Assembly: GCA_904419545.1 (NCBI GenBank)
Contig: CAJFRY010000006.1
Coordinates: 26,609-90,608, forward strand
Direction: 5' to 3'
Length of the DNA stretch: 64,000 bases
From: Candidatus Woodwardiibium gallinarum
GTDB lineage: Bacteria; Bacillota; Clostridia; Oscillospirales; CAG-382
Shown here: in pieces, positions 9,661 to 24,381 of the stretch
Layout: each line of letters begins with the position of its first letter
Numbering within the stretch: position 1 is the first letter of the stretch
Notes under the pieces: generated by a model
The model's database searches: none
The model's input: the letters and a program-made list of their open reading frames with translations, nothing else
Told to the model about the DNA's origin: nothing
Position numbers and translations under genes: made by a program

Positions 9661-10518
9661 ATGTCTTTCATACAAGCCGAAAACCTGTCCTTCGCCTACC
9701 GCGAGGGGGAGGAACCGGTCATCCGGAACATAAGCCTGTCGATTGAAGAAGGCACCTATACGGCGATCATCGGCCACAACGGCAGCGGCAAGAGCACGCT
9801 GGCCAAGCTGCTCTGCGGCATCCTGCCGCCGACGGGCGGCCGCGTGACCGTCGGCGGCATCGATACGACCGACGAGGAGAGGGCGTTTGCGCTGCGGCAG
9901 CTTTGCGGGATGGTGTTCCAGAACCCCGACAACCAGATTGTCGCCTCCGTCGTGGAGGAGGACGTGGCGTTCGCTCCCGAAAACCTCGGAAGGCCGCCGG
10001 AGGAAATCCGCCGCACGGTGGACGAATGCCTGAAGGCCGTCGGGATGACCGAATACGCCAAGCACTCCGCGGCCAAGCTCTCGGGCGGCCAGAAGCAGCG
10101 CGTGGCCATCGCCGGCATTCTGGCAATGAACCCGAAATGCATCGTGTTTGACGAAGCGACCGCCATGCTCGACCCCGCCGGACGGCGCGACATCGCCGCG
10201 GCGATGCGGCATCTGAACCGCGAAAAAGGCATTACCGTCATCACTATCACCCATTATATGAACGAAGCCGTCGAAGCCGGCCGCGTGATCGTGCTCAACC
10301 GCGGCGAGGTCTACAAGGACGGTACGCCGAAGGAAATTTTCTCCGATGTCGCCGGCCTGCAGGAAATCGGTCTGTCGGTCCCGCAGGTGACGGAGTTCGC
10401 CTACCTGCTCGGGCAGGCGGGCTATCCGCTGCCGAAAGGGCTGCTGCATACGATGGAAACCGCCGACGCAGTCGAAGCGCTTCTGCGCGGCCTGCGGAAG
10501 GGAGGGACGTTGCAATGA
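9661..10518 (+). CDS. ecfA1: ECF transporter ATPase component EcfA1
   Basis: 285 aa. Walker A GHNGSGKST, signature LSGGQKQR, and Walker B IVFDEATAMLD. It is first in the ecfA-ecfA-ecfT-truA arrangement. Confidence 0.9.
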   Translation: MSFIQAENLSFAYREGEEPVIRNISLSIEEGTYTAIIGHNGSGKSTLAKLLCGILPPTGGRVTVGGIDTTDEERAFALRQLCGMVFQNPDNQIVASVVEEDVAFAPENLGRPPEEIRRTVDECLKAVGMTEYAKHSAAKLSGGQKQRVAIAGILAMNPKCIVFDEATAMLDPAGRRDIAAAMRHLNREKGITVITITHYMNEAVEAGRVIVLNRGEVYKDGTPKEIFSDVAGLQEIGLSVPQVTEFAYLLGQAGYPLPKGLLHTMETADAVEALLRGLRKGGTLQ

Positions 10519-11378
10519 GCCTGACGCTGGAAAATATCGGCGTCGTGTACGGCGAGAACACCCCCTTCCGTCACACTGCGCTCGAGAATATCAGCATCGC
10601 TTTCCCCAAGGGGAAGGTGACCGGCATCATCGGGCACACCGGCAGCGGCAAGAGCACGCTGGCGATGCTGCTCAACGGACTGCTCAGGCCGACATCCGGC
10701 CGCGTCCTGCTGGACGGCGAGGACATCTGGGCCAAGCCGAAGGAGATGCGCGCGGTCCGCTTTCGGGTGGGACTGGTGTTCCAGTACCCCGAATATCAGC
10801 TTTTTGACGAGACCGTGCGGGCGGACATCGCCTTCGGGCCGAAAAATATGAACCTGTCTGCCGAGGAATGCGACGCGCGCGTCGCGCGGGCGGCGGCCTT
10901 CTGCGGCATCGACGAGACGGTGCTATCCCGCTCGCCGTTCGAGCTGTCGGGCGGACAGAAGCGTCGCGCGGCCATCGCCGGCGTTCTGGCAATGGACCCG
11001 GAGGTGCTCGTGCTCGACGAACCGGCTGCGGGGCTGGACCCGCGCGGACGCGAGGAAATCCTCGGCGGGCTGATGGAATACCAGAAGCAGCGCCAAAGCA
11101 CGATGCTGATCATCTCGCACAGCATGGAGGACATCGCCAAATACGCCGATTCAATCCTTGTGCTCAAAAACGGTAAAGTCTTCCTCTTCGGTACGGTCGG
11201 AGAGGTCTTTGCCGATGCGCAGAAGCTGTTCGACTCCTCGCTCGACCTGCCGCAGATCACGAAGCTCTTCGTCGAGCTGCAAAAACGCGGCCTTGCCGAC
11301 CGCACCGACGTCTACACCGTCGGATATGCGGTAAAAACGGCGGCAAAGCTCGCCGAAAACGCTGCAAAGGAACTATAG
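10515..11378 (+). CDS. ecfA2: ECF transporter ATPase component EcfA2
   Basis: 287 aa. GHTGSGKST, LSGGQKRR and LVLDEPAAGLD. There is a 4-nt overlap with ecfA1. Confidence 0.9.
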   Translation: MSLTLENIGVVYGENTPFRHTALENISIAFPKGKVTGIIGHTGSGKSTLAMLLNGLLRPTSGRVLLDGEDIWAKPKEMRAVRFRVGLVFQYPEYQLFDETVRADIAFGPKNMNLSAEECDARVARAAAFCGIDETVLSRSPFELSGGQKRRAAIAGVLAMDPEVLVLDEPAAGLDPRGREEILGGLMEYQKQRQSTMLIISHSMEDIAKYADSILVLKNGKVFLFGTVGEVFADAQKLFDSSLDLPQITKLFVELQKRGLADRTDVYTVGYAVKTAAKLAENAAKEL

Positions 11379-11382
11379 ATTC

Positions 11383-12198
11383 ATGCTCAAAGACATCACC
11401 TTCGGTCAGTTTTTCCCGGGCGGCAGTCTGCTGCACAGGACCGACCCGCGTTTCAAAATCATTATCCTGCTGGTCTTCCTTGTGCTGGTTCTGCTGGCAA
11501 AAAGCGCTGCGGCGTTTGCCTTTGTCGTGCTGCTGACGGCTGCTCTGCTGCTCTGCTCGCGGCTTTCGTGGCGCATTCTGCTCAAGGGTCTCAAACCGCT
11601 TCTTTTCATCCTCCTGTTCACCGCGCTCATCAACCTTTTTGCTACGCAGGGACATACGGTGCTCTGGCAGTGGTGGATCATCCGAATCACTCGCGAGGGC
11701 CTTGTCAATGCCGTCTTTATGCTCTGCCGGCTTCTTTCGCTTTTTCTGGGAAGCTCGGTCATTCTCACCTATACCACCTCCCCGCTCGACCTGACCGACG
11801 GCATTGAACGGCTGCTGTCGCCGCTGCGGCACTTGCATGTGCCGGTACACGACTTTGCGATGATGATGACCATTGCACTGCGCTTCATTCCCACGCTGAT
11901 TGAGGAAACCGACAAGATCATGTCCGCACAGAAGGCGCGCGGATCGGACTTTGAAACCGGCAGCCTGCTGCGCCGGCTCAAGGCGATGATCCCGATTCTC
12001 ATCCCGCTGTTTTACTCGGCCATCCGCCGTGCCTATGATTTGGCGGAAGCAATGGAATGCCGCTGCTACAACGGCGGCGCCAACCGGACGCGGATGAAGG
12101 TGCTCAGGGCGAAGTTTTCCGATTTCGCGTTTCTCGGCTTTATGCTTGCCTGCACGGCGGCCGTCGTGCTGCTCAACGGGGTCGCGCTGCCGTTATGA
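11383..12198 (+). CDS. ecfT: ECF transporter transmembrane component EcfT
   Basis: 271 aa, polytopic. Carries the conserved EcfT (CbiQ family) motif ARG..FE (SAQKARGSDFETG). Confidence 0.85.
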   Translation: MLKDITFGQFFPGGSLLHRTDPRFKIIILLVFLVLVLLAKSAAAFAFVVLLTAALLLCSRLSWRILLKGLKPLLFILLFTALINLFATQGHTVLWQWWIIRITREGLVNAVFMLCRLLSLFLGSSVILTYTTSPLDLTDGIERLLSPLRHLHVPVHDFAMMMTIALRFIPTLIEETDKIMSAQKARGSDFETGSLLRRLKAMIPILIPLFYSAIRRAYDLAEAMECRCYNGGANRTRMKVLRAKFSDFAFLGFMLACTAAVVLLNGVALPL

Positions 12199-13055
12199 AG
12201 GTCGCACTGACAATCGCCTTCGACGGCACGAACTACTGCGGCTGGCAGGCGCAGAAAAACGGCAACGCCATCCAGACCGCCGTCTGCGAGGCCGCCGCGC
12301 GGGTCTATGGGACGGACGTCCCCGTCACCGGCTGCTCACGGACCGACGCGGGCGTGCACGCCTACGGATTTGTCTGCCATCTCGAGGCTCCGTTCATCAT
12401 TCCGGCAGATGCGCTGCCGCTGGCCTTCAACCGCGTGCTGCCGCCCGACATCGCCGTCCGAAGCGCCTGCGAAGTCGGCGAGGACTTCCACGCCCGCTAC
12501 AGCGCTGCAGGCAAGGAATATCTTTACCGCATCCGCAACAGCCGTCTGCGCGACCCGTTTGAAAACGGACGCGCGCTGCTCTGGCCGCACCCGCTTGACG
12601 AAACGGCTCTCGACCGCGCCGCGCAGGCCTTCGTCGGACGGTATGACTTCCGCGCTTTTATGGCCTCCGGCTCGAAGATCACCGACACGGTGCGGCGCGT
12701 GTTCCGCTTCCGTGTCCGGCGAGAGGGTGAGGACGTCACAATGGCAGTAGCCGCCGACGGCTTTTTATACAATATGGTCCGCATTATGGTCGGGACACTG
12801 CTGTGTCCGGGCATGACGGCAGAAAAAATCACGCATATACTGGAATCGTGCGACCGCGGACAGGCCGGCGCCACCGCGCCGGCGCATGGCCTCTACCTGC
12901 GATGCGTCTTCTATCCGAACGGCGCATTAGCGCCGCCGTTTCCCACGACACCGAAAGGACATACAAACGATGGGCGTTTTTTCCATCTTCCGCGAGCCGG
13001 GGAAGAAAACCGACCCGGCGAAGGTCAAAATCCCTACGAGGGAAGCATATTATGA
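12195..13055 (+). CDS. truA: tRNA pseudouridine(38-40) synthase TruA
   Basis: MKVALTIAFDGTNYCGWQAQ... and the catalytic GCSRTDAGVHA. The ATG at 12195 overlaps the ecfT stop. The ORF-track start at 12057 was rejected. Confidence 0.9.
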   Translation: MKVALTIAFDGTNYCGWQAQKNGNAIQTAVCEAAARVYGTDVPVTGCSRTDAGVHAYGFVCHLEAPFIIPADALPLAFNRVLPPDIAVRSACEVGEDFHARYSAAGKEYLYRIRNSRLRDPFENGRALLWPHPLDETALDRAAQAFVGRYDFRAFMASGSKITDTVRRVFRFRVRREGEDVTMAVAADGFLYNMVRIMVGTLLCPGMTAEKITHILESCDRGQAGATAPAHGLYLRCVFYPNGALAPPFPTTPKGHTNDGRFFHLPRAGEENRPGEGQNPYEGSIL

Positions 13056-14232
13056 AACGATCGCCCGGCGCGTGTCGTTCGTCAAATACGCGGTCATCCT
13101 GCTGAGCGTCTGTTTCGCCGCGTTTGCATTCACCTTTTACGGCGACGAGCTGACGATTGAAAACTTTCGTTATATGCTGAAATTCGTTTCCTTCGATTCC
13201 GTCACCGTCGGCTCCGACGGGTCGCGCGTCGCCTACGACTACGACACGGGAAACATCGGCGCGGTGGTTCGCGGCGATCTGGCGGTAATCAACAGAAGCG
13301 GTATTTGTGTATACGATTTCAATTCCCGCCGCGTGCTTAAAAGCAGCTTTTTCTATACAAATCCGCTCGTGCGCACATCCGACCGCAATGTCTATGTCTG
13401 CGATCTGGGCGGGAAGGAGCTGGAGGTCTTTACTTCCTATTCCTCAGTGCTCAAGCAGACCTATGAATATCCGATCCTCGGGCTGGATGTGACAGACAGC
13501 GGCGCGTTCGCAGTCATTTCCAAAAAACGCAACTACCGCTCGGGCGTCTGGGTGTACGATGAAAATTTCAATACGATTTACACGGCCTTCTTCGGCGCCG
13601 GCGACGACGACCGTGACCGCGAAATTCTGGACGTCGCGCTGCGCGACGACAAAGGCGAGCTGCTCGCTGCAGCCTTTTATACCACCGAAAGCGGCGAGTT
13701 CGAGACCTGCCTGATGCGGCTGGATCTGACTGCGGAGGACAGCTACACGACGCTCACTTACACCGGAGAACTGCCCTGGAAGGCCGTCTACCGCGACGAC
13801 GGCGGCTTCTGGCTGCTGACCAACAAGGCGCTGCGCTCATTCGCCGCCGACGGCAGTTTGCTGTTTGAGGAACGCTACGGCACGCGCACGGTGCAAAAAT
13901 TTGAGCTGGGCGAAAAATACGCGTCTCTTGCATACGGAGGCAGCGGTTTTGGCAACGATATGGATACCGAATTCTTTACGGCAAACGAAGCATGCAGAAC
14001 GGTCGCCGGACCGGCGGTCACAGACATCGCCTTTTTCGGCGATCAGGCCTTCCTGCTGCGGGACGGCGAGCTTCAATCCGTCTCGCTCAGCGGCGGGTCG
14101 GATGCAACGCAGTCCCTTTCACAGACCTACACGTCGCTGCTGCTTGCGCCCGAGACCACACAGCTCGTGCTTTTTTCCGGCGCGGAGGCTGTGATATTAG
14201 ATATCGACGGCATCGGACAGACCGAAGAATAA
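12970..14232 (+). CDS. hypothetical membrane-anchored protein (single N-terminal TM helix, large extracytoplasmic domain)
   Basis: 420 aa with coding-like composition and TM helix VKYAVILLSVCFAAFAFTFY. No recognisable catalytic motif. The start is uncertain: the ATG at 12970 overlaps truA by 86 nt, and an in-frame GTG at 13072 avoids that overlap. Confidence 0.55.
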   Translation: MGVFSIFREPGKKTDPAKVKIPTREAYYETIARRVSFVKYAVILLSVCFAAFAFTFYGDELTIENFRYMLKFVSFDSVTVGSDGSRVAYDYDTGNIGAVVRGDLAVINRSGICVYDFNSRRVLKSSFFYTNPLVRTSDRNVYVCDLGGKELEVFTSYSSVLKQTYEYPILGLDVTDSGAFAVISKKRNYRSGVWVYDENFNTIYTAFFGAGDDDRDREILDVALRDDKGELLAAAFYTTESGEFETCLMRLDLTAEDSYTTLTYTGELPWKAVYRDDGGFWLLTNKALRSFAADGSLLFEERYGTRTVQKFELGEKYASLAYGGSGFGNDMDTEFFTANEACRTVAGPAVTDIAFFGDQAFLLRDGELQSVSLSGGSDATQSLSQTYTSLLLAPETTQLVLFSGAEAVILDIDGIGQTEE

Positions 14233-14251
14233 TCAACAGACGGAGGGTGTT

Positions 14252-14950
14252 ATGAGCGCTATATTGGACATTCTGATTGTCGTCATTATCGGCGTGACGA
14301 TTTTATTTGCAGTTAAAAACGGCTTTGTTAAAACCGTGCTGTCGGCAGCGAGTTTCCTTATCGCGCTGGTGGTCGCTTTCCTGTTTGTCTCCCCGGTACG
14401 CGACGCATTTCTGGAAAGCGGAATGGCCGTCAAGGTGCGTTCGGCAGTAGACGAGAGCATTACCTCCTTCGTCACCGGCGCGTCGGCCGAGCAGGAGGAG
14501 CTGCCCGAATTCCTGACCAAACTGGAGTTCATCGGCATCGACCGGGCCGAGCTGGAGGAAAAATGGAACGATTGGCGCACCGAAAACACCGAAACGCTCA
14601 AAAACGAGCTGGTCGGCTACGTCTCCGAGCCGGTGCTGCGTGCGGTGGCGACCTTTACCGCATTCGTGCTGCTCTACCTTGGCTCAGTGCTGGTCCTGCG
14701 GCTGGCCGCCTATCTGCTCGACAAGCTGACCGACCTGCCCATCCTGCGGCAGGCCAATAAGCTGCTCGGGCTGGTCGCGGGCGTCGTGCTGGCGCTGCTG
14801 CGCGTCTGGCTTTTCTGTGCGGTGGTGCAATTGCTCCTGCCCTGCGCCGACACGCTTGGCTTAGGCATCGTCTCCCATATCGATCCCGCAAATACCTTTT
14901 TGTTCAAATTCTTTTATGAAAACAATTTCTTCAGCCTTTTCTTCGCCTGA
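14252..14950 (+). CDS. cvpA: CvpA family membrane protein
   Basis: 232 aa. The N-terminus ILDILIVVIIGVTILFAVKNGFVKTVL is typical of CvpA. Four or more TM helices. Confidence 0.7.
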   Translation: MSAILDILIVVIIGVTILFAVKNGFVKTVLSAASFLIALVVAFLFVSPVRDAFLESGMAVKVRSAVDESITSFVTGASAEQEELPEFLTKLEFIGIDRAELEEKWNDWRTENTETLKNELVGYVSEPVLRAVATFTAFVLLYLGSVLVLRLAAYLLDKLTDLPILRQANKLLGLVAGVVLALLRVWLFCAVVQLLLPCADTLGLGIVSHIDPANTFLFKFFYENNFFSLFFA

Positions 14951-15069
14951 ACCGGCAGATGTGTCGGCTGCTTCCGGGGATTCCCTCCCCTGCCGACGCC
15001 ATACCAAACCGGCGGGCAATATCCCTGATTGAACCTGCTGCCTGCGGCGGCAGCGGAACGGAGTGCGGA

Positions 15070-15651
15070 ATGGAAAAAAGACAGATTCCCAATATACTTT
15101 CGGCGATCCGGCTGCTGGCGGTGCCTGTTTTCGTCGCCGTCTTCTTCTCGGACATCGCCAATGCAAACATATGGGCGCTGGTCATCTTCGTAGCGGCAGA
15201 GCTGACCGATATCCTCGACGGATATCTTGCGCGCCGGAACGGATGGATCACCGACGTCGGGAAGATTCTCGACCCGCTCGCCGACAAGCTGATGCAGGCG
15301 GCCGCCATCATATCGCTGGCCGTTAAGCAGCCCGTGCTGATCTGGCTGACGGTCCTCTTCGCGGTCAAGGAAACCTGCATGCTCATCGGCGCTTATCTGA
15401 TCCTGAAAAAACGCAAGGACATCGTCGTCTCCTCGTGGTACGGCAAAGCGGCCTCGGCCATCTTTGCCTGTACGGTCACCGCGCTGCTGCTGCTTTGGGA
15501 GAACTACGTCGTCACGCTGACGCTGAGCATCCTGCTCGGGATCGTGATCCTGTTTGCGTTTACCATGTATTATATCAAAATTTTTCGCGGCAAATACGGG
15601 CTGAAAAAGCCGAATCCGTCCGCGAAGCATACGAAAGGCAGAACTGAATGA
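15070..15651 (+). CDS. pgsA: CDP-diacylglycerol--glycerol-3-phosphate 3-phosphatidyltransferase
   Basis: MEKRQIPNILSAIRL... with the CDP-alcohol phosphatidyltransferase motif DILDGYLARRNGWITDVGKILDPLADK. The internal Met at 15070 was chosen. Confidence 0.85.
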   Translation: MEKRQIPNILSAIRLLAVPVFVAVFFSDIANANIWALVIFVAAELTDILDGYLARRNGWITDVGKILDPLADKLMQAAAIISLAVKQPVLIWLTVLFAVKETCMLIGAYLILKKRKDIVVSSWYGKAASAIFACTVTALLLLWENYVVTLTLSILLGIVILFAFTMYYIKIFRGKYGLKKPNPSAKHTKGRTE

Positions 15652-17918
15652 TGCAAATGAAGCTGTGTTCCCGCTGCAAAAAACGTGTGGCGGTGATTTA
15701 CGTGACAAAAACCGAAAACGGTCAGACCACCTCGGAGGGTCTGTGCCTGCGCTGCGCGAAGGAGCTGGGCATCAAGCCGATGAACGACATCATCCGCAAG
15801 CTCGGCATCTCGGAGGAGGAATTCGACGCGATGGCCGATGAAGTGGCGGGGATGATCCCCTTCGCCGAGCCGCAGGATGAGAACGACAACGAGGGCCGCG
15901 CGCCCGCGCTGGATTTCAACGCCATTATGGGTGGCGGCGGGCTGCCCGTCGAGCGGCAGACCGAGTCCGAGCGTGGCACTAAGGGAGACGGCAAGCCCAA
16001 GCGCAAGTACCTCAGCCAATTCTGTATGGACCTGACCGGCAAAGCGCGCGAAAAGAAGCTGGACGCCGTCGTCGGCCGCGAAAAAGAGCTTGAGCGCGTG
16101 ATGCAGATTCTCTGCCGCCGCCAAAAGAACAACCCCTGCCTCATCGGCGAACCCGGCGTCGGCAAAACAGCCGTAGCCGAGGCACTTGCACAGCGCATCG
16201 TTGACGGGAAGGTTCCCGGCAAGCTGGCCGACAAGGAGGTCTATCTGGTGGATATGACCGCCATCGTCGCCGGCACGCAGTTCCGCGGACAGTTTGAGAA
16301 TCGGATGAAGGGACTCATCGACGAAGTGAAAAAGTTAGGCAATATCATTCTTGTCATCGACGAGATCCACTCCATCGTCGGCGCGGGCGACGCGGAGGGC
16401 GGCATGAACGCAGCCAACATCCTCAAGCCGGCGCTCTCGCGCGGCGAGATTCAGGTTATCGGCGCGACCACGCTGACCGAATACCGCAAGCATATCGAAA
16501 ACGACTCGGCGCTCGAGCGGCGCTTCCAGCCGGTTATGATCAACGAACCTTCCATCGAATCGACGGTCGAGATCCTCAAGGGAATCAAAAAATATTATGA
16601 GACCTTCCACGGCATCAAGATTTCCGACGAGCTCATCCGCAAGATGGTCGTCCTCTCCGAGCGCTATATCACCGATCGTTATCTGCCCGACAAGGCCATC
16701 GACATTATGGACGAAGCCTCCTCCTACATGGCGATGCATTCACCGCTCATCAACGAGCTCAATTCGCTTTCGCGCGAGCTGACGGCGCTGAACGAGCGGA
16801 AGAGCGCCATCGAGTCCCAGGAGAACAAGACTGAGGAGGACTACCGCCAGCTCGCTGAGGTGACGACGAAGATCGCCCAGAAGAGCGGCCGGTTCGACGG
16901 CCTTTCCGCCGAGCGCGATTCGCTGTGGCTGGACGAAGCCTCAGTCGCAAAGGTCATCGAGAACTGGACCGGCATCCCCGCGACGAGCATCAGCGAAAAT
17001 GAGTACCAAAAGATGCAGTCGCTCGAGTCGGCACTCAAAAAGCGCATCATCGGACAGGACGAGGCCATCGGCAAAATCGCACGCGCCATCCGCCGCAGCC
17101 GCGCGGGCATCTCGTATAAGAAAAAGCCGGTCTCCTTCATCTTCGCCGGCAGCACCGGCGTGGGAAAGACCGAGCTGGTCAAGGTTCTGGCCTCCTACCT
17201 GTTCGATTCGCCCGAGTCGCTCATCCGGCTGGATATGTCCGAGTTTATGGAAAAGCACTCGGTCTCGCGCATCATCGGCTCGCCTCCGGGCTATGTCGGC
17301 TATGACGATGCCGGGCAGTTGACCGAAAAGATCCGCCGCAAGCTCTACTCGGTCATCCTCTTCGACGAGATCGAAAAGGCGCACCCCGACGTGCTCAACA
17401 TCCTGCTGCAGATCCTGGACGACGGCCGCATCACCGACGCGCACGGCAAGACCGTCAATTTTGAAAACACCGTGCTTATTATGACCACCAACGCCGGCAG
17501 CTCGGCCGACGGCACGCCCGCCGGGTTTACGATGACGGCACATTCAGCCGACGAAGTGAAGGTCAAGGCCGCGCTGGAGGACTTCCTCCGGCCCGAATTC
17601 ATCAACCGCGTCGACGACATCGTCGTCTTTAACCGGCTCACACGTGAGAACTTCGGCTTCATCTGCCGCATTATGCTCGACGACCTTAAATCGGTGCTGG
17701 CCGAGAAGAACGTGGCTTTCACCTACGACGACGCAGCCGTGGCGCTGCTGGTCGAGAAGGGCTACTCCGAAAAATACGGCGCGCGCAACCTGCGCCGCCT
17801 CATCCAGACTGACGTGGAGGACGCGGTCGCCGCCGTTATCATCGAGAGCTACCAGAACGCGGTCACCTCCGTTTCGCTGACCGCCGAAAACGGCGCGCTC
17901 AAGCTCGAGAGCCGTTAG
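15648..17918 (+). CDS. clpE: ClpE-like Clp/Hsp100 AAA+ ATPase with N-terminal zinc ribbon
   Basis: 756 aa. The N-terminus [35 protein letters not shown] has a CxxC...CxxC pattern, as in ClpE. Two Walker A motifs ([16 protein letters not shown]). A possible ClpP-docking loop, PAGFT, is present. No Clp_N repeats were seen. Confidence 0.8.
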
Positions 17919-17924
17919 CGCGCG

Positions 17925-20693
17925 ATGGCACGCAGCTTTTTGAAGAAGTCGGAGGAAGGACCGAGCATCCGCACGATCACCTCGGCCTCTGCGCGGGAAT
18001 ACACGCGCGAGTTCCTCTCGCCTTCCGAAATGCAGCCCTACGAGGTCGCCGAAATTCTGGGCAGCGACATCGACAACGGGCTGACCAAGGCGGGCGTGGC
18101 GCACGCGCGTCGAAAGTACGGCAGCAACATCATCAAAGAAGAACTGTCGCTCTCCTTCGGACAGAGCCTGAAGAAGCAGCTTCTGGGCATTCACGGGCTG
18201 CTGGTGCTGCTGTGCGCAGTCATTTTGTATATTTTTACGCCTGACCCGCTGTATATGCTGCTGGCCGTCTGTGCAGCGGCGGTGACGCTGGTCAACGCCT
18301 ATCTGGAGAGCCGCTCGCAGAAAGCGATCAAAAGCACGCTGCGCCGCGTCTCGCCGAAAGCCATCGTCATCCGCGACGGCCGCGAGTTCTCGGTGGACAG
18401 CCGCGCGCTCGTTCCCGGCGACGTCATCCGGCTGGAGGTCGGCCGCATCGTCCCCGCGGACGCACGGCTGATCGAAGCCAACAGCCTGACCGTGCTCGAA
18501 ACGCCGGTCACGCGTGCCAAAGCCTCCGTCGGCAAGGACGCTTCCTATATCGCCGACGGAACCGGCGACGCCATCGCGCTGAATATGGTCTGCGCTCTCT
18601 CAGTCGTCACCGGCGGCAGCGCGAAGGCCATTGTCACCGCAACCGGCAAGGACACAGCCGTCCGCCTGCTTTCGGGCGATCGCACGCGCGACCCGATGCC
18701 GGCGCTGCTGAAATACATCCGCAGCACGGGCCGGTTCGTGTCGCTGGCGGCGGTAGTGACCGACTTCGTTCTCATCCTGCTCGGCCTGCTGACAAACCGC
18801 GACATCGTCAACGTGTTCACTATGGCGCTGACAATCGGCTTCGTCTCGCTTTCGGACAGCGCCTTCGCGCTCGCCTCGGCAGCCATCGGACTGGGGATGA
18901 AAAAGGCGTCGGCTGCGGGCGCTTCGCTCAAGAACCTCAACAGCATCGCCAAGCTCTGCTTCATCGATACAGTAATGTGTGAAAAGAACAGCGCCTTCCC
19001 GCCCCGGCAGCTCACGGCGCAGACCGCCTTTGTCGATTTCCGCCGCGTACCGGTCGAAAAGCAGAACCGCGATGCGCTTGAACAAGTATTGACGCTGTCG
19101 CTGGTCTGTTCAAACTTCCGCGAAAAGTTTGAAAACCCCTCGCTCTACCGCCGCCGCCGGAACCTCGACTTGTTTTACGAGGGCAGCCAGAGCGATTTGG
19201 CGCTCATCAAGGCCTGCGGCGAGCTGGATATCGAGCTTTCAGGGCTGAAAAACGATTACTTCAAAATTGAAACCGAATATACCACAGGCGGAGAAGCGCT
19301 GCGCACCCTCGTGCTGCACGAGGGAAAAAACCTTGTCGTCCTCAAGGGTGCGCCCGAGATGGTCGTCAGCCGGTGCGCGGGCTACGAAATCGGCGGCGAA
19401 GCAAAAAAAATGACGCCGGCCGCTGCGAAACGCCTGCTGGACGAAGCCGCGCAGCTCTCGCGCGAATCAATGACAGTCTACGCCGTCGCCGCCGGCATAA
19501 CCGAATGCGACAGTCTGAAAAGCATCGATGTGGAGAAGCGTCTGATCTTCAAAGGCTTCATCGGCTGCTATATGTCGGTTTACGTCGATTCCGCCTCAGC
19601 CGTATTCAAGTGTACGCAAGCCGGCATTGAGCCGGTCGTGCGGACCGACGAATCCTTTTATACCGCAGTCAGTCACGCAAAAAACGCAGGTATCATCACC
19701 GACGAATCGCAGGTCATCACCGGTGAGCAGCTCAGGAGCATGGACGAAGGGCTGTACATCGCCAACAGCCCGGACTATAAGGTCTACCGCGGCGTTACCG
19801 ACGCCGAGTGGCTGCGTGTGCTGCGGCTGCGTAAGGAGGACGGCAAGGCCGTCGCAGTGACCGCCGAGCGGATGGAGGACCTGACGCTGATGAGCGAAGC
19901 GGACGCAACCTTTGTCTCCAACAGTCAGGCGCCCGAGACGATCCTCCAGTCAGCCGACGTGCTCATCGACGCGGGCGGATTCGACGTGATCACGCGCGTG
20001 CTCGAATGCGCGCGCAGCATCTACAAGCGCGTGTACTCCGTTGTGCAGTATCTGACCGTTGCGTATGCGATGCTGGTGTTTTCGGCGCTGCTGTCGCTGT
20101 GTTCGGGGATGGCGTTCCCCGCGCGGGTGAGTGAAATCGTATTCGCGGGCTTTGGCGCCAACCTGCTGTTCGCACTGGCGCTGGCGTTCGCACCCACGCA
20201 CCGTAAAATTCTGACCGACAGGATCCCACGCTACACCGCGCGTCCCAAGCTGTCCGACTTTGCGGTGCCGCTGGCCTACGCGGGCGGCGGCGCGCTGGCG
20301 CTGCTGCTTTCCTATCTGGCCGGAAACGCGGAAGGCGCGCACTCACGCGTGCTCGTCACGTTCGTGCTGCTGCTTGCGATGTTCGCTTTCTCGGGCTCGT
20401 CAAAGCAGAGTCTGGTTACCAGCCGTGCCTACCGCAACTATCTGCTGCTGCCGGCGCTCGGCATATCCCTCGTGGGTATGGCGCTGCTGCTGTACGAGCC
20501 GTCGGCGCGCGCCGCATTCGGCTATCGCGCACTCGGTGCGGCCGATCTGCTGACGGCCGTCGGCATTGCTTTACTGAATTTCGTATGCCTACAGCTCGCG
20601 CTGTTTGCCATAAACAAATGTAAAATCAAAAAATCGCGTGCGCGGACCTTCCCGAAGTCGGGGCGCGGCGCGGCAGAAAAGGAGAATGTATAA
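17925..20693 (+). CDS. P-type cation ATPase homolog with degenerate catalytic motifs (probable pseudo-enzyme)
   Basis: 922 aa. It retains a Cation_ATPase_N-like start, the A-domain core VPGDVIRLEVGRIVPADARLI, KGAPE, and about 10 TM helices. However, DKTGT reads DTVMC, the TGES loop is absent (LTVLETPVTRAK), PEGLP reads SDSAF, TGDN reads RTDES, and GDGxND reads AERMED. Confidence 0.75.
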   Translation: MARSFLKKSEEGPSIRTITSASAREYTREFLSPSEMQPYEVAEILGSDIDNGLTKAGVAHARRKYGSNIIKEELSLSFGQSLKKQLLGIHGLLVLLCAVILYIFTPDPLYMLLAVCAAAVTLVNAYLESRSQKAIKSTLRRVSPKAIVIRDGREFSVDSRALVPGDVIRLEVGRIVPADARLIEANSLTVLETPVTRAKASVGKDASYIADGTGDAIALNMVCALSVVTGGSAKAIVTATGKDTAVRLLSGDRTRDPMPALLKYIRSTGRFVSLAAVVTDFVLILLGLLTNRDIVNVFTMALTIGFVSLSDSAFALASAAIGLGMKKASAAGASLKNLNSIAKLCFIDTVMCEKNSAFPPRQLTAQTAFVDFRRVPVEKQNRDALEQVLTLSLVCSNFREKFENPSLYRRRRNLDLFYEGSQSDLALIKACGELDIELSGLKNDYFKIETEYTTGGEALRTLVLHEGKNLVVLKGAPEMVVSRCAGYEIGGEAKKMTPAAAKRLLDEAAQLSRESMTVYAVAAGITECDSLKSIDVEKRLIFKGFIGCYMSVYVDSASAVFKCTQAGIEPVVRTDESFYTAVSHAKNAGIITDESQVITGEQLRSMDEGLYIANSPDYKVYRGVTDAEWLRVLRLRKEDGKAVAVTAERMEDLTLMSEADATFVSNSQAPETILQSADVLIDAGGFDVITRVLECARSIYKRVYSVVQYLTVAYAMLVFSALLSLCSGMAFPARVSEIVFAGFGANLLFALALAFAPTHRKILTDRIPRYTARPKLSDFAVPLAYAGGGALALLLSYLAGNAEGAHSRVLVTFVLLLAMFAFSGSSKQSLVTSRAYRNYLLLPALGISLVGMALLLYEPSARAAFGYRALGAADLLTAVGIALLNFVCLQLALFAINKCKIKKSRARTFPKSGRGAAEKENV

Positions 20694-20896
20694 TGAAAGA
20701 GATCACCAAAAACACCGTCATCGGCGATATCCTCGATCTGAACGAGGAGCTTGCCCCCTACTTCCTCGAAATCGGCATGCACTGCCTCGGCTGCCCGTCC
20801 GCACGCAGCGAAACCGTAGAAGAGGCCTGCCAGGTCCATGGTGTAGATGCCGACGAGCTGGTTAAAAAGCTCAACGCAGCCATCAACGGCAAATAA
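20693..20896 (+). CDS. DUF1858 domain protein (hybrid-cluster-protein-associated redox disulfide domain-like)
   Basis: 67 aa. VIGDILDLNEELAPYFLEIGMHCLGCPSARSETVEEAC carries the CxxC-type motif typical of this small family. The ATG shares one nucleotide with the upstream TAA. Confidence 0.7.
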   Translation: MKEITKNTVIGDILDLNEELAPYFLEIGMHCLGCPSARSETVEEACQVHGVDADELVKKLNAAINGK

Positions 20897-20961
20897 AAAT
20901 ACGAATCCGGCCCGTGAAGACAAGTTCGCGGGCCGGAATGATACGAAAAGAGGACAAGAAT

Positions 20962-21429
20962 ATGGGCAAAAGCACCTTTTTCAAGGATTTCAGAGCCTTT
21001 ATTATGCGGGGGAATATCATTGATATGGCCGTCGGCGTGATCATAGGCGGTGCGTTCAGCAAGATCGTGTCGTCACTCGTCGCGGACATCATCACGCCGC
21101 TCATTTCCCTGGCGCTCGGCAAGACTGATTTTTCCGACATTGTCTGGACGCTGAGAGCCGCGACCGATGACAGCGAGGCCATTGTGATGAACGGCGGTGC
21201 GTTCATCCAGACTGTCATCGATTTTCTGATTATCGCGCTCTGTATTTTTGTTGCGCTGCGCATAGCCGTCAAAGCCAGACATAAGGCTGAAGCCCTGCTG
21301 CACAGAGAAAAGGAAATGGAAGCGGAAGCGAATACAGCTCCGCCCGCCCCCACGCCCGAGCAGGAGAGCGCCGCCGCACTCAAGGAAATCCGCGACCTAC
21401 TGGCCGAGATGAAAGAGCAGTCCAAATGA
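20962..21429 (+). CDS. mscL: large-conductance mechanosensitive channel MscL
   Basis: FKDFRAFIMRGNIIDMAVGVIIGGAFSKIVSSLVADIITP is the canonical MscL N-terminus. The Met at 20962 was chosen over 20914. Confidence 0.9.
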   Translation: MGKSTFFKDFRAFIMRGNIIDMAVGVIIGGAFSKIVSSLVADIITPLISLALGKTDFSDIVWTLRAATDDSEAIVMNGGAFIQTVIDFLIIALCIFVALRIAVKARHKAEALLHREKEMEAEANTAPPAPTPEQESAAALKEIRDLLAEMKEQSK

Positions 21430-22328
21430 ACAAACAGCGATACATAATCGGTGCCGACGGCGGCGGCTCGAAAACCGCTATGATCCTCGCGCACGAGGAC
21501 GGCAGCGAGGCCGCACGTCTGACAGCCGGCGCTTCCAACCCAACCGACCTCGGCATTGAAAACAGCGCCTCGTTCCTGACCGAAACGGCATCCCGCCTTT
21601 GCGCAGAGAATAACATTGCGCCCGAACAGGTGTCCGCGATCTTTTTAGGAATCGCGGGCGGCTCGCATGAGGGCTTCCGCGCGCTGACGAACCGCAAGCT
21701 GCGCGCGCTTTTCCCGCAAGCGATTACGGAGGTGTCGCATGACGCGGTAAACATCTTCTACGCCGCATTCCCCGATGAGGACGGCACGGCCGTCATCTGC
21801 GGCACAGGCTGCTCGTGCTTTGTCAAAAAAGGAAACCGGCTGCATCGCATCGGCGGCTATTCGATTTTTGACGTCTCCGGCAACGGCTACGAAATCGGCA
21901 AACGCGCCATTTCACATGCACTCGCATGCGGAGACGGCCGCGCGGAGCCGGACGCACTCTACAGGCTGGTGCGGGAGCAAACGGGCGAGGAGATGCTTGA
22001 CGCACTGCCCCGCCTGCTGCTTGCCTCCAAAACCGAAATCGCTCGCTACGCGCCGCTGGTGTTCGAAGCCGAGCGGCAGGGCTCTGAGGCGGCGGCAGGC
22101 ATCCTCCGCGAGAACATTGCACGCATCGCCGAGTACATCAACTGTGCGGGTCGCCGCTTTTTCGACGCCCCCTTCCCCACCGCCATTGCCGGCGGCATCT
22201 TTCGCGACACGCGCGCAATGGAGCTGCTCCTGCCCATGCTGACCTGCGCCTGCCGCGTGTCCGTCCTGACGCGCGAGCCGGTGTTCGGCGCAGTGGAAAA
22301 GGCGCGGCGGCTGTTGACAAACGGCTGA
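21426..22328 (+). CDS. BadF/BadG/BcrA/BcrD-type ATPase (N-acetylglucosamine kinase-like)
   Basis: 300 aa. Carries YIIGADGGGSKTAMIL and GTGCSCF phosphate-binding motifs of the ASKHA fold. Confidence 0.7.
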   Translation: MNKQRYIIGADGGGSKTAMILAHEDGSEAARLTAGASNPTDLGIENSASFLTETASRLCAENNIAPEQVSAIFLGIAGGSHEGFRALTNRKLRALFPQAITEVSHDAVNIFYAAFPDEDGTAVICGTGCSCFVKKGNRLHRIGGYSIFDVSGNGYEIGKRAISHALACGDGRAEPDALYRLVREQTGEEMLDALPRLLLASKTEIARYAPLVFEAERQGSEAAAGILRENIARIAEYINCAGRRFFDAPFPTAIAGGIFRDTRAMELLLPMLTCACRVSVLTREPVFGAVEKARRLLTNG

Positions 22329-22378
22329 AAAGCGTGCTATAATCATGTTTGCCGAATCAACTGCGCTGCGGGTGATTC

Positions 22379-22412
22379 GCGCGGCAATTGCCGCGCAATT
22401 TCATTGTTTTTT
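22379..22412 (+). terminator. rho-independent terminator (or 5' attenuator of the thrS leader)
   Basis: GCGCGGCAATTGCCGCGC stem, followed by aatttcattgTTTTTT. Confidence 0.7.
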
Positions 22413-22626
22413 GAACCGTCTTGATGAAACTCAAGCCTGATTCCGACGCGAAAGCGCAAGGCTTTTAAGCATAGCCCCGCAAAGTCCTTGCGCCTGAGCA
22501 AAGCCCGGCTTGCCTTGAAAGACTTGGCCGATAAGGCTTCGACTTCTTAGCCGGTACGATAAAATTATATGCGCTGCCGCACGGCCATTTCGGAGCCGCG
22601 GGCAGCGGAAAGAAGGACAGATACCA
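22413..22626 (+). promoter_or_regulatory. structured, unclassified 5' leader of thrS
   Basis: About 210 nt with several helices (GCGCAAGG/CCTTGCGC, CCGGCT/AGCCGG, GCTGCCGC/GCGGGCAGC next to the RBS). A GATGAAA K-turn-like start is present, but no clear T-box 14-mer was seen. Confidence 0.35.
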
Positions 22627-24381
22627 ATGGACAACGAGCTGCAAACGCTCAGACACACAGCCGCGCACATTCTGGCGCAGGCAGTCAAGCGCCTGTACCC
22701 GCAGGCGAAGCTGGCGATCGGGCCGGCGATTGAAAACGGGTTCTATTACGACATCGACATGCCTGTCTCGGTTACGCCGGAGGTCTTGGCGCAGCTTGAA
22801 GCGGAGATGAAGAAAATCGCCGCCGAGAATCTGCGCATTGAACGCTTCACCCTGCCGCGGGACGAGGCGCTGGCTCTGATGAAGGACGAACCCTTCAAGA
22901 CAGAGCTGATCCAGGACCTGCCGGAGGGAGAGGAAATCTCCTTCTACAAGCAGGGAGAGTTCACCGACCTGTGCGCCGGCCCGCATGTCGCGTACACAAA
23001 AAAGCTCAAGGCCTTCAAGCTCACGCAGGCGACGGGCGCCTACTGGCGCGGAGACAGCACAAAGAAAATGCTTACGCGCATCTACGGCACGGCATTTGCG
23101 ACCAAGGAGGAGCTGGAAAGCTACCTCGCCGCCGTCGAAGAAGCCAAAAAGCGCGACCACAACAAGCTCGGCCGTCAGCTCGGCCTGTTTACCACCTCCG
23201 AGGAAATCGGACAGGGCCTGCCGATCATCCTGCCGAAGGGCACGGTCGTCCTGCGCACCCTCCAGCGCTGGGTGGAGGACGAGGAGGAAAAGCGCGGCTA
23301 TCTGCAGACAAAAACGCCGTTTATGGCCAAGCGCGAACTGTATAAGATCAGCGGACATTGGGACCACTACCGGGACGGAATGTTCGTTATGGGCGACCGC
23401 GCCGAGCAGGACGACCCGGAAAAGGAGATTCTTGCCCTGCGTCCGATGACCTGCCCGTTCCAGTTCCAGGCCTATCTGACCCAGACGCATTCTTACCGCG
23501 ACCTGCCGCTGCGTTACAACGAGACGAGCACGCTCTTCCGCAATGAAGCCAGCGGCGAGATGCACGGGTTGATCCGCGTGCGCCAGTTCACGATTTCCGA
23601 GGGGCATATCGCCTGCACGCCCGAGCAGCTTGAAGGTGAGTTCGCCGGCTGTCTGGAACTGGCAAAGTATATGCTGACCACACTCGGCTTGGAAGAAGAT
23701 GTGTTTTACCGCTTCTCGAAGTGGGACAAGAACAACCGCGAAAAATACATCGGCTCGGAGGAAGCATGGGAAGCCGCGCAGGACACGATGCGCCGCATCC
23801 TCAACGACCTGAAGATCGATTATTACGAAGCGGACGGCGAGGCGGCCTTCTACGGACCGAAGCTCGACATTCAGATCAAGAACGTCCATGGCAAGGAGGA
23901 CACGCTCATCACCATTCAGATCGACTTCCAGCTCGCCGAAAAATTCGGGATGGAATACGTCGACCGTGACAACAAGCGAAAGTACCCCTATGTCATCCAC
24001 CGCACCTCGATCGGCTGCTATGAGCGCACGCTGGCGCTGCTGATTGAGAAATATGCCGGCGCGTTCCCGCTCTGGCTCGCACCCGAGCAGGCGCGTGTGA
24101 TCCTGATTTCCGACGAGCAGAAGCCCTATGCCGAGAGCGTTCTGCAAACGCTTCGGGACGCCGGCATCCGCGCCACGCTCGACGACCGGAACGAAAAGCT
24201 CGGCTTCAAGATCCGCGAAGCACAGCTTGAAAAGCTTCCGTATATGCTTGTCGTCGGCGGCAAGGAAGCCGAGTCCGGCACCGTCGGCGTCCGCAGCCGC
24301 AAGGAGGGAGACCTCGGCAGCATGACGATCGATGCTTTTATCGGCAAGGCCGCGGAGGAAATCCGTACCAAAGCGAAATAA
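22627..24381 (+). CDS. thrS: threonine--tRNA ligase (short form beginning in the editing domain; no TGS domain)
   Basis: 584 aa. Starts at LRHTAAHILAQAVKRLYP, the HxxxH of the editing domain. Class II motifs are present (FRNEASGEMHGLIRVRQF, GPKLD). A C-terminal anticodon-binding domain is present. Confidence 0.95.
   Translation: MDNELQTLRHTAAHILAQAVKRLYPQAKLAIGPAIENGFYYDIDMPVSVTPEVLAQLEAEMKKIAAENLRIERFTLPRDEALALMKDEPFKTELIQDLPEGEEISFYKQGEFTDLCAGPHVAYTKKLKAFKLTQATGAYWRGDSTKKMLTRIYGTAFATKEELESYLAAVEEAKKRDHNKLGRQLGLFTTSEEIGQGLPIILPKGTVVLRTLQRWVEDEEEKRGYLQTKTPFMAKRELYKISGHWDHYRDGMFVMGDRAEQDDPEKEILALRPMTCPFQFQAYLTQTHSYRDLPLRYNETSTLFRNEASGEMHGLIRVRQFTISEGHIACTPEQLEGEFAGCLELAKYMLTTLGLEEDVFYRFSKWDKNNREKYIGSEEAWEAAQDTMRRILNDLKIDYYEADGEAAFYGPKLDIQIKNVHGKEDTLITIQIDFQLAEKFGMEYVDRDNKRKYPYVIHRTSIGCYERTLALLIEKYAGAFPLWLAPEQARVILISDEQKPYAESVLQTLRDAGIRATLDDRNEKLGFKIREAQLEKLPYMLVVGGKEAESGTVGVRSRKEGDLGSMTIDAFIGKAAEEIRTKAK

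Follow-up and report, generated by a model that had tools for sequence, protein, structure and literature searches.

A conserved P2A-type ATPase homolog lacking the catalytic motifs, encoded directly behind clpE in uncultured Clostridia, as a candidate membrane scaffold

In the 64,000-nucleotide stretch of DNA analyzed here (the window, that is, positions 26,609 to 90,608 of contig CAJFRY010000006.1, assembly GCA_904419545.1, Candidatus Woodwardiibium gallinarum), the gene lying directly downstream of a clpE-type gene codes for a 922-aa homolog of P-type ATPases that comparative evidence identifies as a pseudoenzyme, i.e., a dead pump homolog conserved across species under purifying selection. 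P-type ATPases are among the best-understood membrane enzymes, and the data reported below point to a new pseudoenzyme clade derived from Ca2+ pumps, bacterial and stand-alone, with an undescribed non-pumping job at the membrane. This clade includes at least 76 species in the family of the window protein (hereafter family A) plus at least three further dead lineages. As for its role, we tentatively suggest that the pseudo-pump has been kept as a non-catalytic membrane scaffold working with ClpE, either as an anchor, an adaptor or a regulated client.

Results

The fold of a P2A pump without its catalytic residues

The open reading frame (ORF) of the pump homolog runs uninterrupted from 17925 to 20693 on the forward strand. 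Four Pfam domains of P-type ATPases were found in its product, namely Cation_ATPase_N (aa 36-100), E1-E2_ATPase (aa 143-329), the Cation_ATPase N domain (aa 418-485) and Cation_ATPase_C (aa 738-891), and the same Pfam search gave no match to the HAD/Hydrolase model PF00702. Every NCBIfam P-type model scores far under its own cut-off, the best one being the PMR1-type Ca-ATPase model (185 bits vs. a cut-off of 798). In phmmer alignments, residues 33-893 match human SPCA1 (3.4e-45) and residues 50-898 match Listeria LMCA1 (2.2e-40). The AlphaFold2 (AF2) model, made from 20 family sequences, is confident (pLDDT 83, pTM 0.77) and has 10 transmembrane (TM) helices, with the M4 helix still broken at the position where SDSAF replaces PEGLP; according to Foldseek, it is closest to P2 ATPases in open E1-like states (SERCA-phospholamban, SERCA E1-Mg and Na,K-ATPase E1; TM-score 0.72-0.76). 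Its homology and fold place the protein in the P2A (PMR1/SPCA/LMCA1/YloB-like) branch of the P-type ATPase superfamily. The profile search, the full-length alignments and the structural superposition are thus all in agreement with the initial annotation of this DNA, made from the sequence alone, which had described an intact P-type ATPase homolog with degenerate catalytic motifs.

The registers of these motifs were obtained from phmmer alignments to PDB entries and from two MAFFT alignments, with 4 and with 29 real pumps, respectively. All three give identical registers, which rules out another register holding intact motifs. Family-wide counts were taken over 73 near-full-length members, none of which (0/73) retains the intact motif set. 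The phosphorylation site was previously read as DTVMC; this string lies five residues upstream of the true counterpart of DKTGT, E353-K-N-S-A. In the family, the position of the phosphorylated Asp is occupied by Gly (29 members), Asp (18), Ser (7), Pro (5) or Glu (4), with eight or more different residues occurring overall, the T-G-T of DKTGT is never kept, and the following AFP is a family-specific feature of 72-73/73 sequences. The TGES loop is not deleted, as had been stated, but substituted (T196-R-A-K), and its dephosphorylation Glu, lost in the window protein, survives in just 8/73 members. The remaining assignments of the initial annotation (PEGLP to SDSAF, TGD to TDE(S), GDGVND to AERMED, and a retained KGAPE in the N domain) were confirmed by the full-length alignments. 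At the M4 site, the family has Cys, Ser or Thr in place of Pro and, in 58/73 members, Asp in place of Glu. The N-domain motif, [KR]-G-x-P-E in the family, is largely retained, as are the Asp of TGD (60/73 sequences) and, with a Phe-to-Tyr change, the adenine-stacking aromatic residue. The region of K684 (SPEHK) reads TDAEW in the window protein; of the two Asp residues of the Mg2+ site GDGxND, no member has the first and 13/73 have the second. Expressed as equivalents of pump residues, T353, K684 and D703 are lost throughout the family and D707 survives in those 13 sequences.

The ion-binding site has undergone a similar fate: the M5 N/E ligands of Ca2+ are lost, the M6 liganding Asp is Asn in 72/73 members (NxxxD becoming GxxxN in 71-72/73), and the only conserved polar residues left in the TM core are Asp311 (M4), Asn746 (M6) and Gln890 (M10). 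Compared with the P2A Ca2+-ATPases YloB, LMCA1 and SPCA1/PMR1, which provide the best matches in both sequence and structure, the pseudo-pump shares the Cation_ATPase_N region, the A, P and N domains, the 10 TM helices, the A-domain core and KGAPE; however, none of the functional hallmarks of a P-type enzyme is in place, since the DKTGT Asp, the TGES Glu, TGD(N), GDGxND, the K684 equivalent and the M4/M5/M6 Ca2+ residues are all lost or neutralised. As judged from these alignments, the protein cannot run the Post-Albers (aspartyl-phosphate) cycle, because it has no conserved phospho-acceptor Asp, no TGES Glu, and no intact GDGxND or K684 equivalent; on the same grounds, the canonical Ca2+ site is neutralised.

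What the pseudo-pump adds with respect to those Ca2+ pumps, besides the motif xKxxAFP and an operonic association with clpE, is a family-specific N-terminal tail of 35 residues, predicted to be disordered (pLDDT <50 for aa 1-29). Within the tail, a short motif I-[KRN]-T-[VIF]-[TS] (IRTITS, aa 15-20, in the window protein) is conserved across the 73 orthologs and is followed by an acidic stretch and by F-x-P-x-E-M (F-x-P-E-E-M). The alignment with real pumps revealed that the motif is missing from genuine P2 ATPases, and we consider it a candidate docking or degron element.

Orthologs and purifying selection

A search of 5.8 billion proteins returned 30 family clusters (32-100% identity), all without PF00702, and a score gap from 422 to 215 bits parts them from hundreds of ordinary pumps, all with PF00702. 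In a scan of one genome per GTDB species, 76 species-level loci were found to carry family members, whose identity to the window protein ranges from 32 to 68%. The carriers are all metagenome-assembled genomes (MAGs) of uncultured Clostridia, Eubacteriales, Oscillospiraceae or "Ruminococcus sp.", of gut and environmental origin, many of them from the guts of ruminants, rabbits, horses or chickens. Each of the 76 loci matches as a single unbroken high-scoring segment pair, without stops or frameshifts; the ORF is complete at 68 of them (855-1057 aa), the remaining eight being cut by contig ends. Moreover, the family has near-invariant motifs of its own, i.e., xKxxAFP, DSRxLVPGD, VPADARL, LETPV, [KR]GxPE and QWLDVLxLRK, as well as DTVMCxKxxAFPP.

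The ratio of nonsynonymous to synonymous substitution rates (dN/dS), estimated from one pair, the window gene and a 90%-identical ortholog (locus L081), is 0.11 overall. By region, it amounts to 0.04 in TM1-2, 0.055 in the A domain, 0.10 and 0.056 in the two P-domain segments, 0.09 in the N domain and 0.21 in TM5-10. Purifying selection hence acts on all domains, most strongly on TM1-2 and the A domain. The neighbouring genes have similar values: the same pair of loci gave 0.09 for DUF1858, 0.11 for MscL, 0.20 for the BadF/G-type protein and 0.10 for the C-terminus of ClpE. The 76 single-frame loci and the dN/dS values (0.04-0.21 per domain) therefore lend strong support to the earlier proposal of a protein that is not decaying but kept for a non-catalytic role; no frameshift-ridden ortholog was found. 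One of the arguments offered for it, an open frame in a stop-rich context, was instead wrong: the GC content of the window is 55-63%, and ORFs spanning hundreds of codons in wrong frames are common. Since a GC content of about 60% makes long spurious ORFs typical, ORF length alone is weak evidence, and the reality of the gene rests on homology, orthologs and dN/dS.

A wider clade of dead pumps

Further dead lineages came to light when 1.84 billion representative proteins were searched with a profile, and in an additional word-index search. One dead pump (P0139) places inside family A. Four others (P0141, P0142, P0119 and P0161) form a separate dead group, and a family B (of the P0143 and P0094 type) counts about 41 clusters, 910-1319 aa long save three truncated entries, none of which has PF00702. 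According to the motif tables, all these lineages are dead, and DKTGT is kept in all but one of 29 genuine-pump references; the reference without it, P0161, proved dead and was reassigned to the dead set, leaving 28 real pumps. In a neighbour-joining tree, all the dead sequences split from the 28 real pumps at 100/100 bootstrap. The dead clade is apparently monophyletic, which is compatible with a single loss of catalysis, although long-branch attraction could mimic this topology.

The membrane core of family B keeps the M4 Glu and the M6 Asp and has an Arg at the usual M5 liganding Glu (NIGE becoming QxAR); it may be that this Arg acts as a built-in tethered cation mimicking an occupied ion site. 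Several members of this family (e.g., P0280 and P0158; loci L086 and L088) have long C-terminal extensions, reaching 1319 aa in total, with no Pfam match.

The gene rqcH (NFACT) lies three genes downstream of the dead pumps at L085, L094 and L095, and directly beside a genuine YloB-type pump at L091-L093; one such pump precedes remA-gmk-rpoZ. We take this rqcH/remA-gmk-rpoZ setting of the real pump to be the yloA-yloB neighbourhood of B. subtilis. YloB is a sporulation Ca2+ pump (PMC12999246). Because rqcH adjoins the real YloB-type pump and lies three genes past several dead pumps, there are hints that the dead clade descends from a YloB-type pump, or from the yloB locus.

The same searches yielded some unusual sequences outside the dead clade. 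In references P0147 and P0165, DKTGT is intact but GDGxND (GDSLSD and GDTVSD) and the M4 site (PESLA and PEVIV) have changed, as has TGES in P0165 (IGEN); the two could be either intermediates that have degenerated in part or active pumps of an unusual kind. P0155 and P0223 (1549-1608 aa) each contain two tandem, apparently intact P-type units, to which P0155 adds an N-terminal HMA_2 domain, and in P0259 (1418 aa) a single real-pump unit is preceded by about 500 aa of N-terminal sequence without a Pfam match.

Conserved linkage to clpE

In the window, the TAG stop codon of clpE (17916-17918) is followed by a six-nucleotide spacer (cgcgcg) and by the ATG of the pseudo-pump gene (17925). The stop codon of the latter (TAA, 20691-20693) shares its final A with the ATG of a DUF1858 gene (20693), as the initial annotation had noticed, and a Shine-Dalgarno sequence (AAGGAG) is located within the 3' end of the pseudo-pump gene, nine bases before that ATG.

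This arrangement, truA-DUF5711-cvpA-(pgsA)-clpE-pump-DUF1858-(mscL-badFG-thrS), is the gene order of family A, so that the synteny suggested from the window alone holds across species. ClpE is encoded directly upstream at 73/73 family loci having upstream DNA, with a median stop-to-ATG distance of 34 nt (-4 to 435), and DUF1858 directly downstream at 66/69, with a median gap of 0 nt and 31 overlapping pairs; the three loci with enough downstream DNA and no DUF1858 are L018, L052 and L058. Both flanks have been rearranged: pgsA is absent at about 14 loci, mscL or badFG is missing at some, thrS is inverted at some, and insertions of 0.8-2 kb occur between DUF1858 and mscL. Despite these gene gains and losses, no breakpoint within clpE|pump was found across the family loci.

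The linkage extends beyond family A: ClpE is directly upstream at 7/8 distant dead-pump loci, which brings the total to 80/81 examined loci, and DUF1858 is downstream at 4/8. At these distant loci the pump is only about 25% identical, yet ClpE is 57-64% identical, and the downstream genes differ. Indeed, L085 (P0119) and L095 (L095/96; P0161) read clpE-pump-DUF1858-trmK-NIF3-rqcH, and L094 (P0142) has the same order preceded by ecfT-truA-DUF5711-cvpA-pgsA. The family B loci L086 (L086/87), L088 and L089 read ecfT-truA-DUF5711-(cvpA)-clpE-pump followed by unrelated genes, and L083/84 (P0094) reads clpE-pump-SASA-RelA/SpoT. The sole exception is L090 (P0141), where a lipocalin-like gene is followed by pump-DUF1858-trmK, without clpE. 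Neither clpE nor DUF1858 was found beside the best-scoring real pumps (P0031 and P0144).

The tight junctions are not confined to these genes. From ecfA (9661) to the BadF/G-type gene (22328), twelve genes share one strand and are separated by very few nucleotides or overlap by 4 nt. A scan for promoters and terminators detected nothing convincing inside this block; the one strong promoter precedes thrS (22314-22343), and the one strong terminator follows it. The block may be a very long operon added on to the usual ecf-truA cluster. Hence, of the translational coupling in a single expression unit proposed by the initial annotation, the tight junctions stand, whereas their being special to the clpE-pump pair does not.

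Discussion

What could a pump that no longer pumps be doing? A ClpE-related role is our best single guess, albeit one held tentatively, because the position behind clpE persists across deep divergence and a changing downstream context. The lack of breakpoints inside clpE|pump, the scarcity of strong hairpins after clpE or the pump gene and a residual covariation of 0.46 between the pseudo-pump and ClpE also speak for it. In its most likely form, the pseudo-pump would be a membrane anchor or adaptor that positions the ClpE(-ClpP) unfoldase at the membrane or presents clients to it; alternatively, it would itself be a dedicated, regulated client of ClpE. The contact might be made through the cytosolic headpiece and/or the conserved disordered N-terminal motif, and DUF1858 could be an optional accessory, sensitive to redox state or to metals. 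If a physical partnership exists, ClpE- and ClpC-type unfoldases would gain in the pseudo-pump their first known partner within the membrane, and the pump fold would have been reused as a scaffold.

Several observations weigh against this proposal. The packing of genes is as tight elsewhere in the block as between clpE and the pseudo-pump gene. The block ecfT-truA-DUF5711-cvpA-clpE is itself syntenic in all the lineages examined, and the adjacency could reflect an inherited order in a slowly rearranging housekeeping region; because truA-DUF5711-cvpA-clpE is conserved across the clade, the partnership with ClpE remains something that we infer. The dead-pump lineage at L090 keeps DUF1858 downstream and has no ClpE upstream. 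No ClpE-pump fusion was found among the unusually long hits, which turned out not to be Rosetta-stone fusions but tandem real pumps, HMA-domain fusions (P0243 and P0252), P0259 or extended members of family B. The carriers are exclusively MAGs. Finally, a crude covariation analysis (pairwise distances from 49 loci, taken as residuals after subtracting the mean of the other genes, with non-independent pairs and no significance test) gave a value of 0.46 for the pseudo-pump with ClpE and a higher one, the strongest of all, with DUF5711 (0.69); the distances of the pseudo-pump hardly track those of DUF1858, MscL or TruA. The covariation with DUF5711 and ClpE may be taken only as a lead.

The same observations feed a different explanation, the main rival, in which the protein has a non-catalytic membrane role independent of ClpE and the adjacency to clpE is merely inherited gene order. 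It might sense cations, voltage or the state of the lipids, form a passive conduit, or act with DUF5711 and CvpA as a structural component of the envelope; taken jointly, these variants are possible, if somewhat unlikely. They would account for the conservation of the whole block truA-DUF5711-cvpA-(pgsA)-clpE-pump beyond the clpE-pump pair, for the top residual covariation being that with DUF5711, for the lineage without ClpE and for neighbours that are mainly membrane or envelope proteins. They do not sit easily with ClpE lying directly upstream at 80/81 loci while pump identity falls to about 25% and the downstream contexts differ, nor, for a classical cation sensor or conduit, with a canonical ion site largely neutralised in family A.

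A more elaborate version of the ClpE-related role can be imagined by analogy with Cdc48/p97 and its Hrd1/Der1/UBX adaptors, since here, too, the gene of a protein that spans the membrane several times is paired with that of a Cdc48/ClpC-like double-ring unfoldase. The dead pump would then be the membrane part of a bacterial machine, similar to that of endoplasmic-reticulum-associated degradation, that extracts or remodels membrane proteins: its TM domain would serve as an adaptor or conduit in the bilayer, the ATP-driven pulling, of which the pump fold is no longer capable, would fall to ClpE (with ClpP), and the DUF5711 beta-propeller and the CxxC protein DUF1858 would be sensing or accessory subunits. 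That a P-type fold is able to handle TM helices is indicated by the P5A-ATPase dislocases (PMC11541931). Here, however, the pump fold is dead and there is no ubiquitin system; the analogy is one of function only, and we regard this machine as unlikely.

Many pseudoenzymes regulate their own active relatives, and on this general precedent the pseudo-pump might likewise control an active P-type paralog in the same cell, either by forming a heteromer with it or as a decoy. In its favour, real P2A pumps occur in related MAGs, and selection acts on the TM helices as well as on all domains of the headpiece. Nevertheless, no active pump gene is linked at any of about 84 loci and the data contain no sign of heteromerisation, which makes this explanation rather improbable. 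More improbable still is that the protein is an enzyme or transporter with an unconventional chemistry, based, for instance, on Glu353, or on ATP bound via KGAPE and hydrolysed differently. The largely retained [KR]GxPE, aromatic residue and TGD Asp (60/73), together with a Glu at the Asp position of the window protein, would fit it; on the other hand, Gly occupies the acceptor position in 29/73 members and eight or more residues occur there overall, the equivalents of T353, K684 and D703 are lost throughout, that of D707 remains in 13/73, and a related P-type module does not tolerate the exchange of D for E (PMC13466520). Lastly, a decaying pseudogene or a chance ORF, as a GC content of 55-63%, the frequent long spurious ORFs of the window and the loss of all catalytic motifs might have suggested, is already refuted by 76 orthologs in one frame without stops or frameshifts, a dN/dS of 0.11, a confident fold and invariant motifs owned by the family. 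A function in anti-phage defence was also considered and rejected: the pump, DUF1858 and DUF5711 have no PADLOC match, and the matches of ClpE are generic AAA+ ones only.

The closest described precedent is that of the alveolate guanylate cyclases (P4GC, e.g., those of Cryptosporidium and Plasmodium GC-beta), which carry a degenerate P4-ATPase-like module with an altered DKTGT Asp and A-domain Glu, thought to have a supporting, non-pumping role (PMC13466520). As in the pseudo-pump, the P-type module has been retained despite the alteration of these two residues. However, the P4GC modules are eukaryotic, belong to the P4 (flippase) type, are fused to a cyclase and are degenerate in some lineages only, whereas the pseudo-pump is bacterial, stand-alone, of the P2A type and dead in every member of a whole clade.

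The literature searched describes neither a dead P-type ATPase from bacteria nor DUF5711 nor any membrane partner of ClpE, and nothing on the dead-pump family was found in the papers on DUF1858; a recent review of open problems in the P-type ATPase field does not mention such dead proteins (PMC10654040). This is in agreement with the initial annotation, whose author knew of no described function for a dead P-type scaffold paired with an unfoldase. A practical consequence concerns genome annotation: NCBI names for family B read "cation-transporting P-type ATPase" or [quoted passage not shown], and since the named records, all of family B, carry the former name, ion-transport capacity is over-called in gut and rumen Clostridia. 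The family also offers a natural experiment on the constraints that remain on a P-type fold after the loss of catalysis; these are strongest in the A domain and TM1-2.

Neighbouring genes and other features of the window

The features of the locus are listed in Table 1. The upstream gene had been described as ClpE-like with an N-terminal zinc ribbon, a description borne out by Pfam, by conservation and by the PDB. Its product has an N-terminal CxxC...CxxC zinc ribbon, a G-F ClpP-docking loop conserved in 66 orthologs and no Clp_N repeats, and the solved ClpE (PDB 29hb) matches it over the full length, from the very N-terminus. The label "ClpE-type" appears justified because of the zinc ribbon, the G-F loop and this full-length match. 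The zinc ribbon, the two AAA+ modules and the docking loop are shared with ClpE of Bacillus, Lactococcus and Streptococcus, with the difference that the gene is here part of a long cluster of membrane genes and not a stand-alone heat-shock gene; in the window, a search for CtsR operators gave only 3-mismatch hits at chance level, none of them near the locus. The pseudo-pump evolves about three times faster than ClpE.

The assignment of the DUF1858 protein to the redox-disulfide domain family of that name is firm (PF08984, 6.8e-23, 81 bits vs. a cut-off of 32.2; TIGR03980, 89.9 bits vs. 44.95), and its GMHCLGCP sequence is invariant in 66 orthologs. Strong hairpins follow DUF1858 at 32% of loci, compared with 7-10% after clpE or the pump gene, and the one present in the window is a possible 3' boundary or stabiliser of the clpE-pump-DUF1858 unit. 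It overlaps a GTG-start extension of the mscL ORF, and because of this overlap mscL probably starts at the ATG at 20962. DUF5711 is found in the upstream block of families A and B and of the P0142 lineage. Its AF2 model (pLDDT 77), with Foldseek matches to BamB/WD40-like proteins, is that of a predicted extracytoplasmic beta-propeller with an N-terminal membrane anchor; a homolog search with this protein returned only eight proteins.

Table 1. Coordinates of the pseudo-pump gene, its motifs and the neighbouring features (positions in the window)
Feature	Coordinates	Strand	Basis or remark
Twelve-gene block: ecfA, ecfA', ecfT, truA, DUF5711, cvpA, pgsA, clpE, pump, DUF1858, mscL, badF/G-type	9661-22328	+	
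DUF5711 protein	12970..14232	+	Pfam; in conserved upstream block
cvpA	14252-14950	+	Conserved upstream membrane gene
pgsA	14959-15651	+	Upstream membrane gene; overlaps clpE start by 4 nt
ClpE-type double-ring AAA+ unfoldase, 756 aa	15648..17918	+	Pfam two-module Clp/Hsp100; ClpE PDB match; 66 orthologs
Pseudo-pump, dead P2A-type ATPase homolog, A/P/N domains and 10 TM helices	17925..20693	+	Pfam, alignments, AF2, Foldseek
N-terminal tail (aa 1-35), family-specific, predicted disordered	17925..18029	+	pLDDT; column conservation
IRTITS motif of the tail	17967-17984	+	Conserved across 73 orthologs
TGES equivalent, A-domain loop: TRAK (aa 196-199)	18510..18521	+	Alignments
PEGLP equivalent, M4 ion site: SDSAF (aa 310-314)	18852..18866	+	Alignments
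DKTGTLT equivalent, phosphorylation site: EKNSAFP (aa 353-359)	18981..19001	+	Alignments
KGAPE of the N domain, retained (aa 474-478)	19344..19358	+	Alignments
TGD(N/H) equivalent: TDES (TDE = aa 574-576)	19644..19655	+	Alignments
GDGVND equivalent: AERMED (aa 647-652)	19863..19880	+	Alignments
M6 NLVTD equivalent: GFGAN	20148..20162	+	Alignments
DUF1858/TIGR03980 CxxC protein, 67 aa	20693..20896	+	Pfam and NCBIfam
13-bp G+C-rich hairpin without U-tract, between DUF1858 and mscL	20906..20937	+	-27 kcal/mol, z = -6.6
mscL	20962-21429	+	Pfam; downstream neighbour in most of family A only
BadF/BadG-type ATPase gene	21426-22328	+	Pfam; downstream in most of family A only; overlaps mscL by 4 nt

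The insertions between DUF1858 and mscL are of two sizes. A gene of about 0.8 kb occupies this position in one subclade (L002, L006, L041, L043, L046-L049, L057, L062, L065, L071 and L077); its product, which at L046-L048, L062 and L077 begins with M-(K/Q/L)-Y-T-A-V-W-A-H-R-G, looks like a glycerophosphodiester phosphodiesterase. About 2 kb are inserted at L044 and L050.

In the region of thrS (22314-22626, forward strand), a perfect sigma-70 consensus promoter (TTGACA-18-TATAAT, with an extended TG element) is found about 280 nt ahead of the gene; neither a T-box nor any other Rfam family was found in the thrS leader, even at E <= 1, or elsewhere near the locus. A 560-aa ORF runs antisense to thrS (22465-24147, reverse strand), and many further wrong-frame ORFs of 100-260 aa occur in the window. 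Farther downstream, an 860-aa fusion protein (53261-55843, forward strand) joins a Pyr_redox_2 domain and its dimerisation domain to a nitrite/sulfite-reductase 4Fe-4S/sirohaem domain, and also harbors an inserted ferredoxin-type 4Fe-4S motif.

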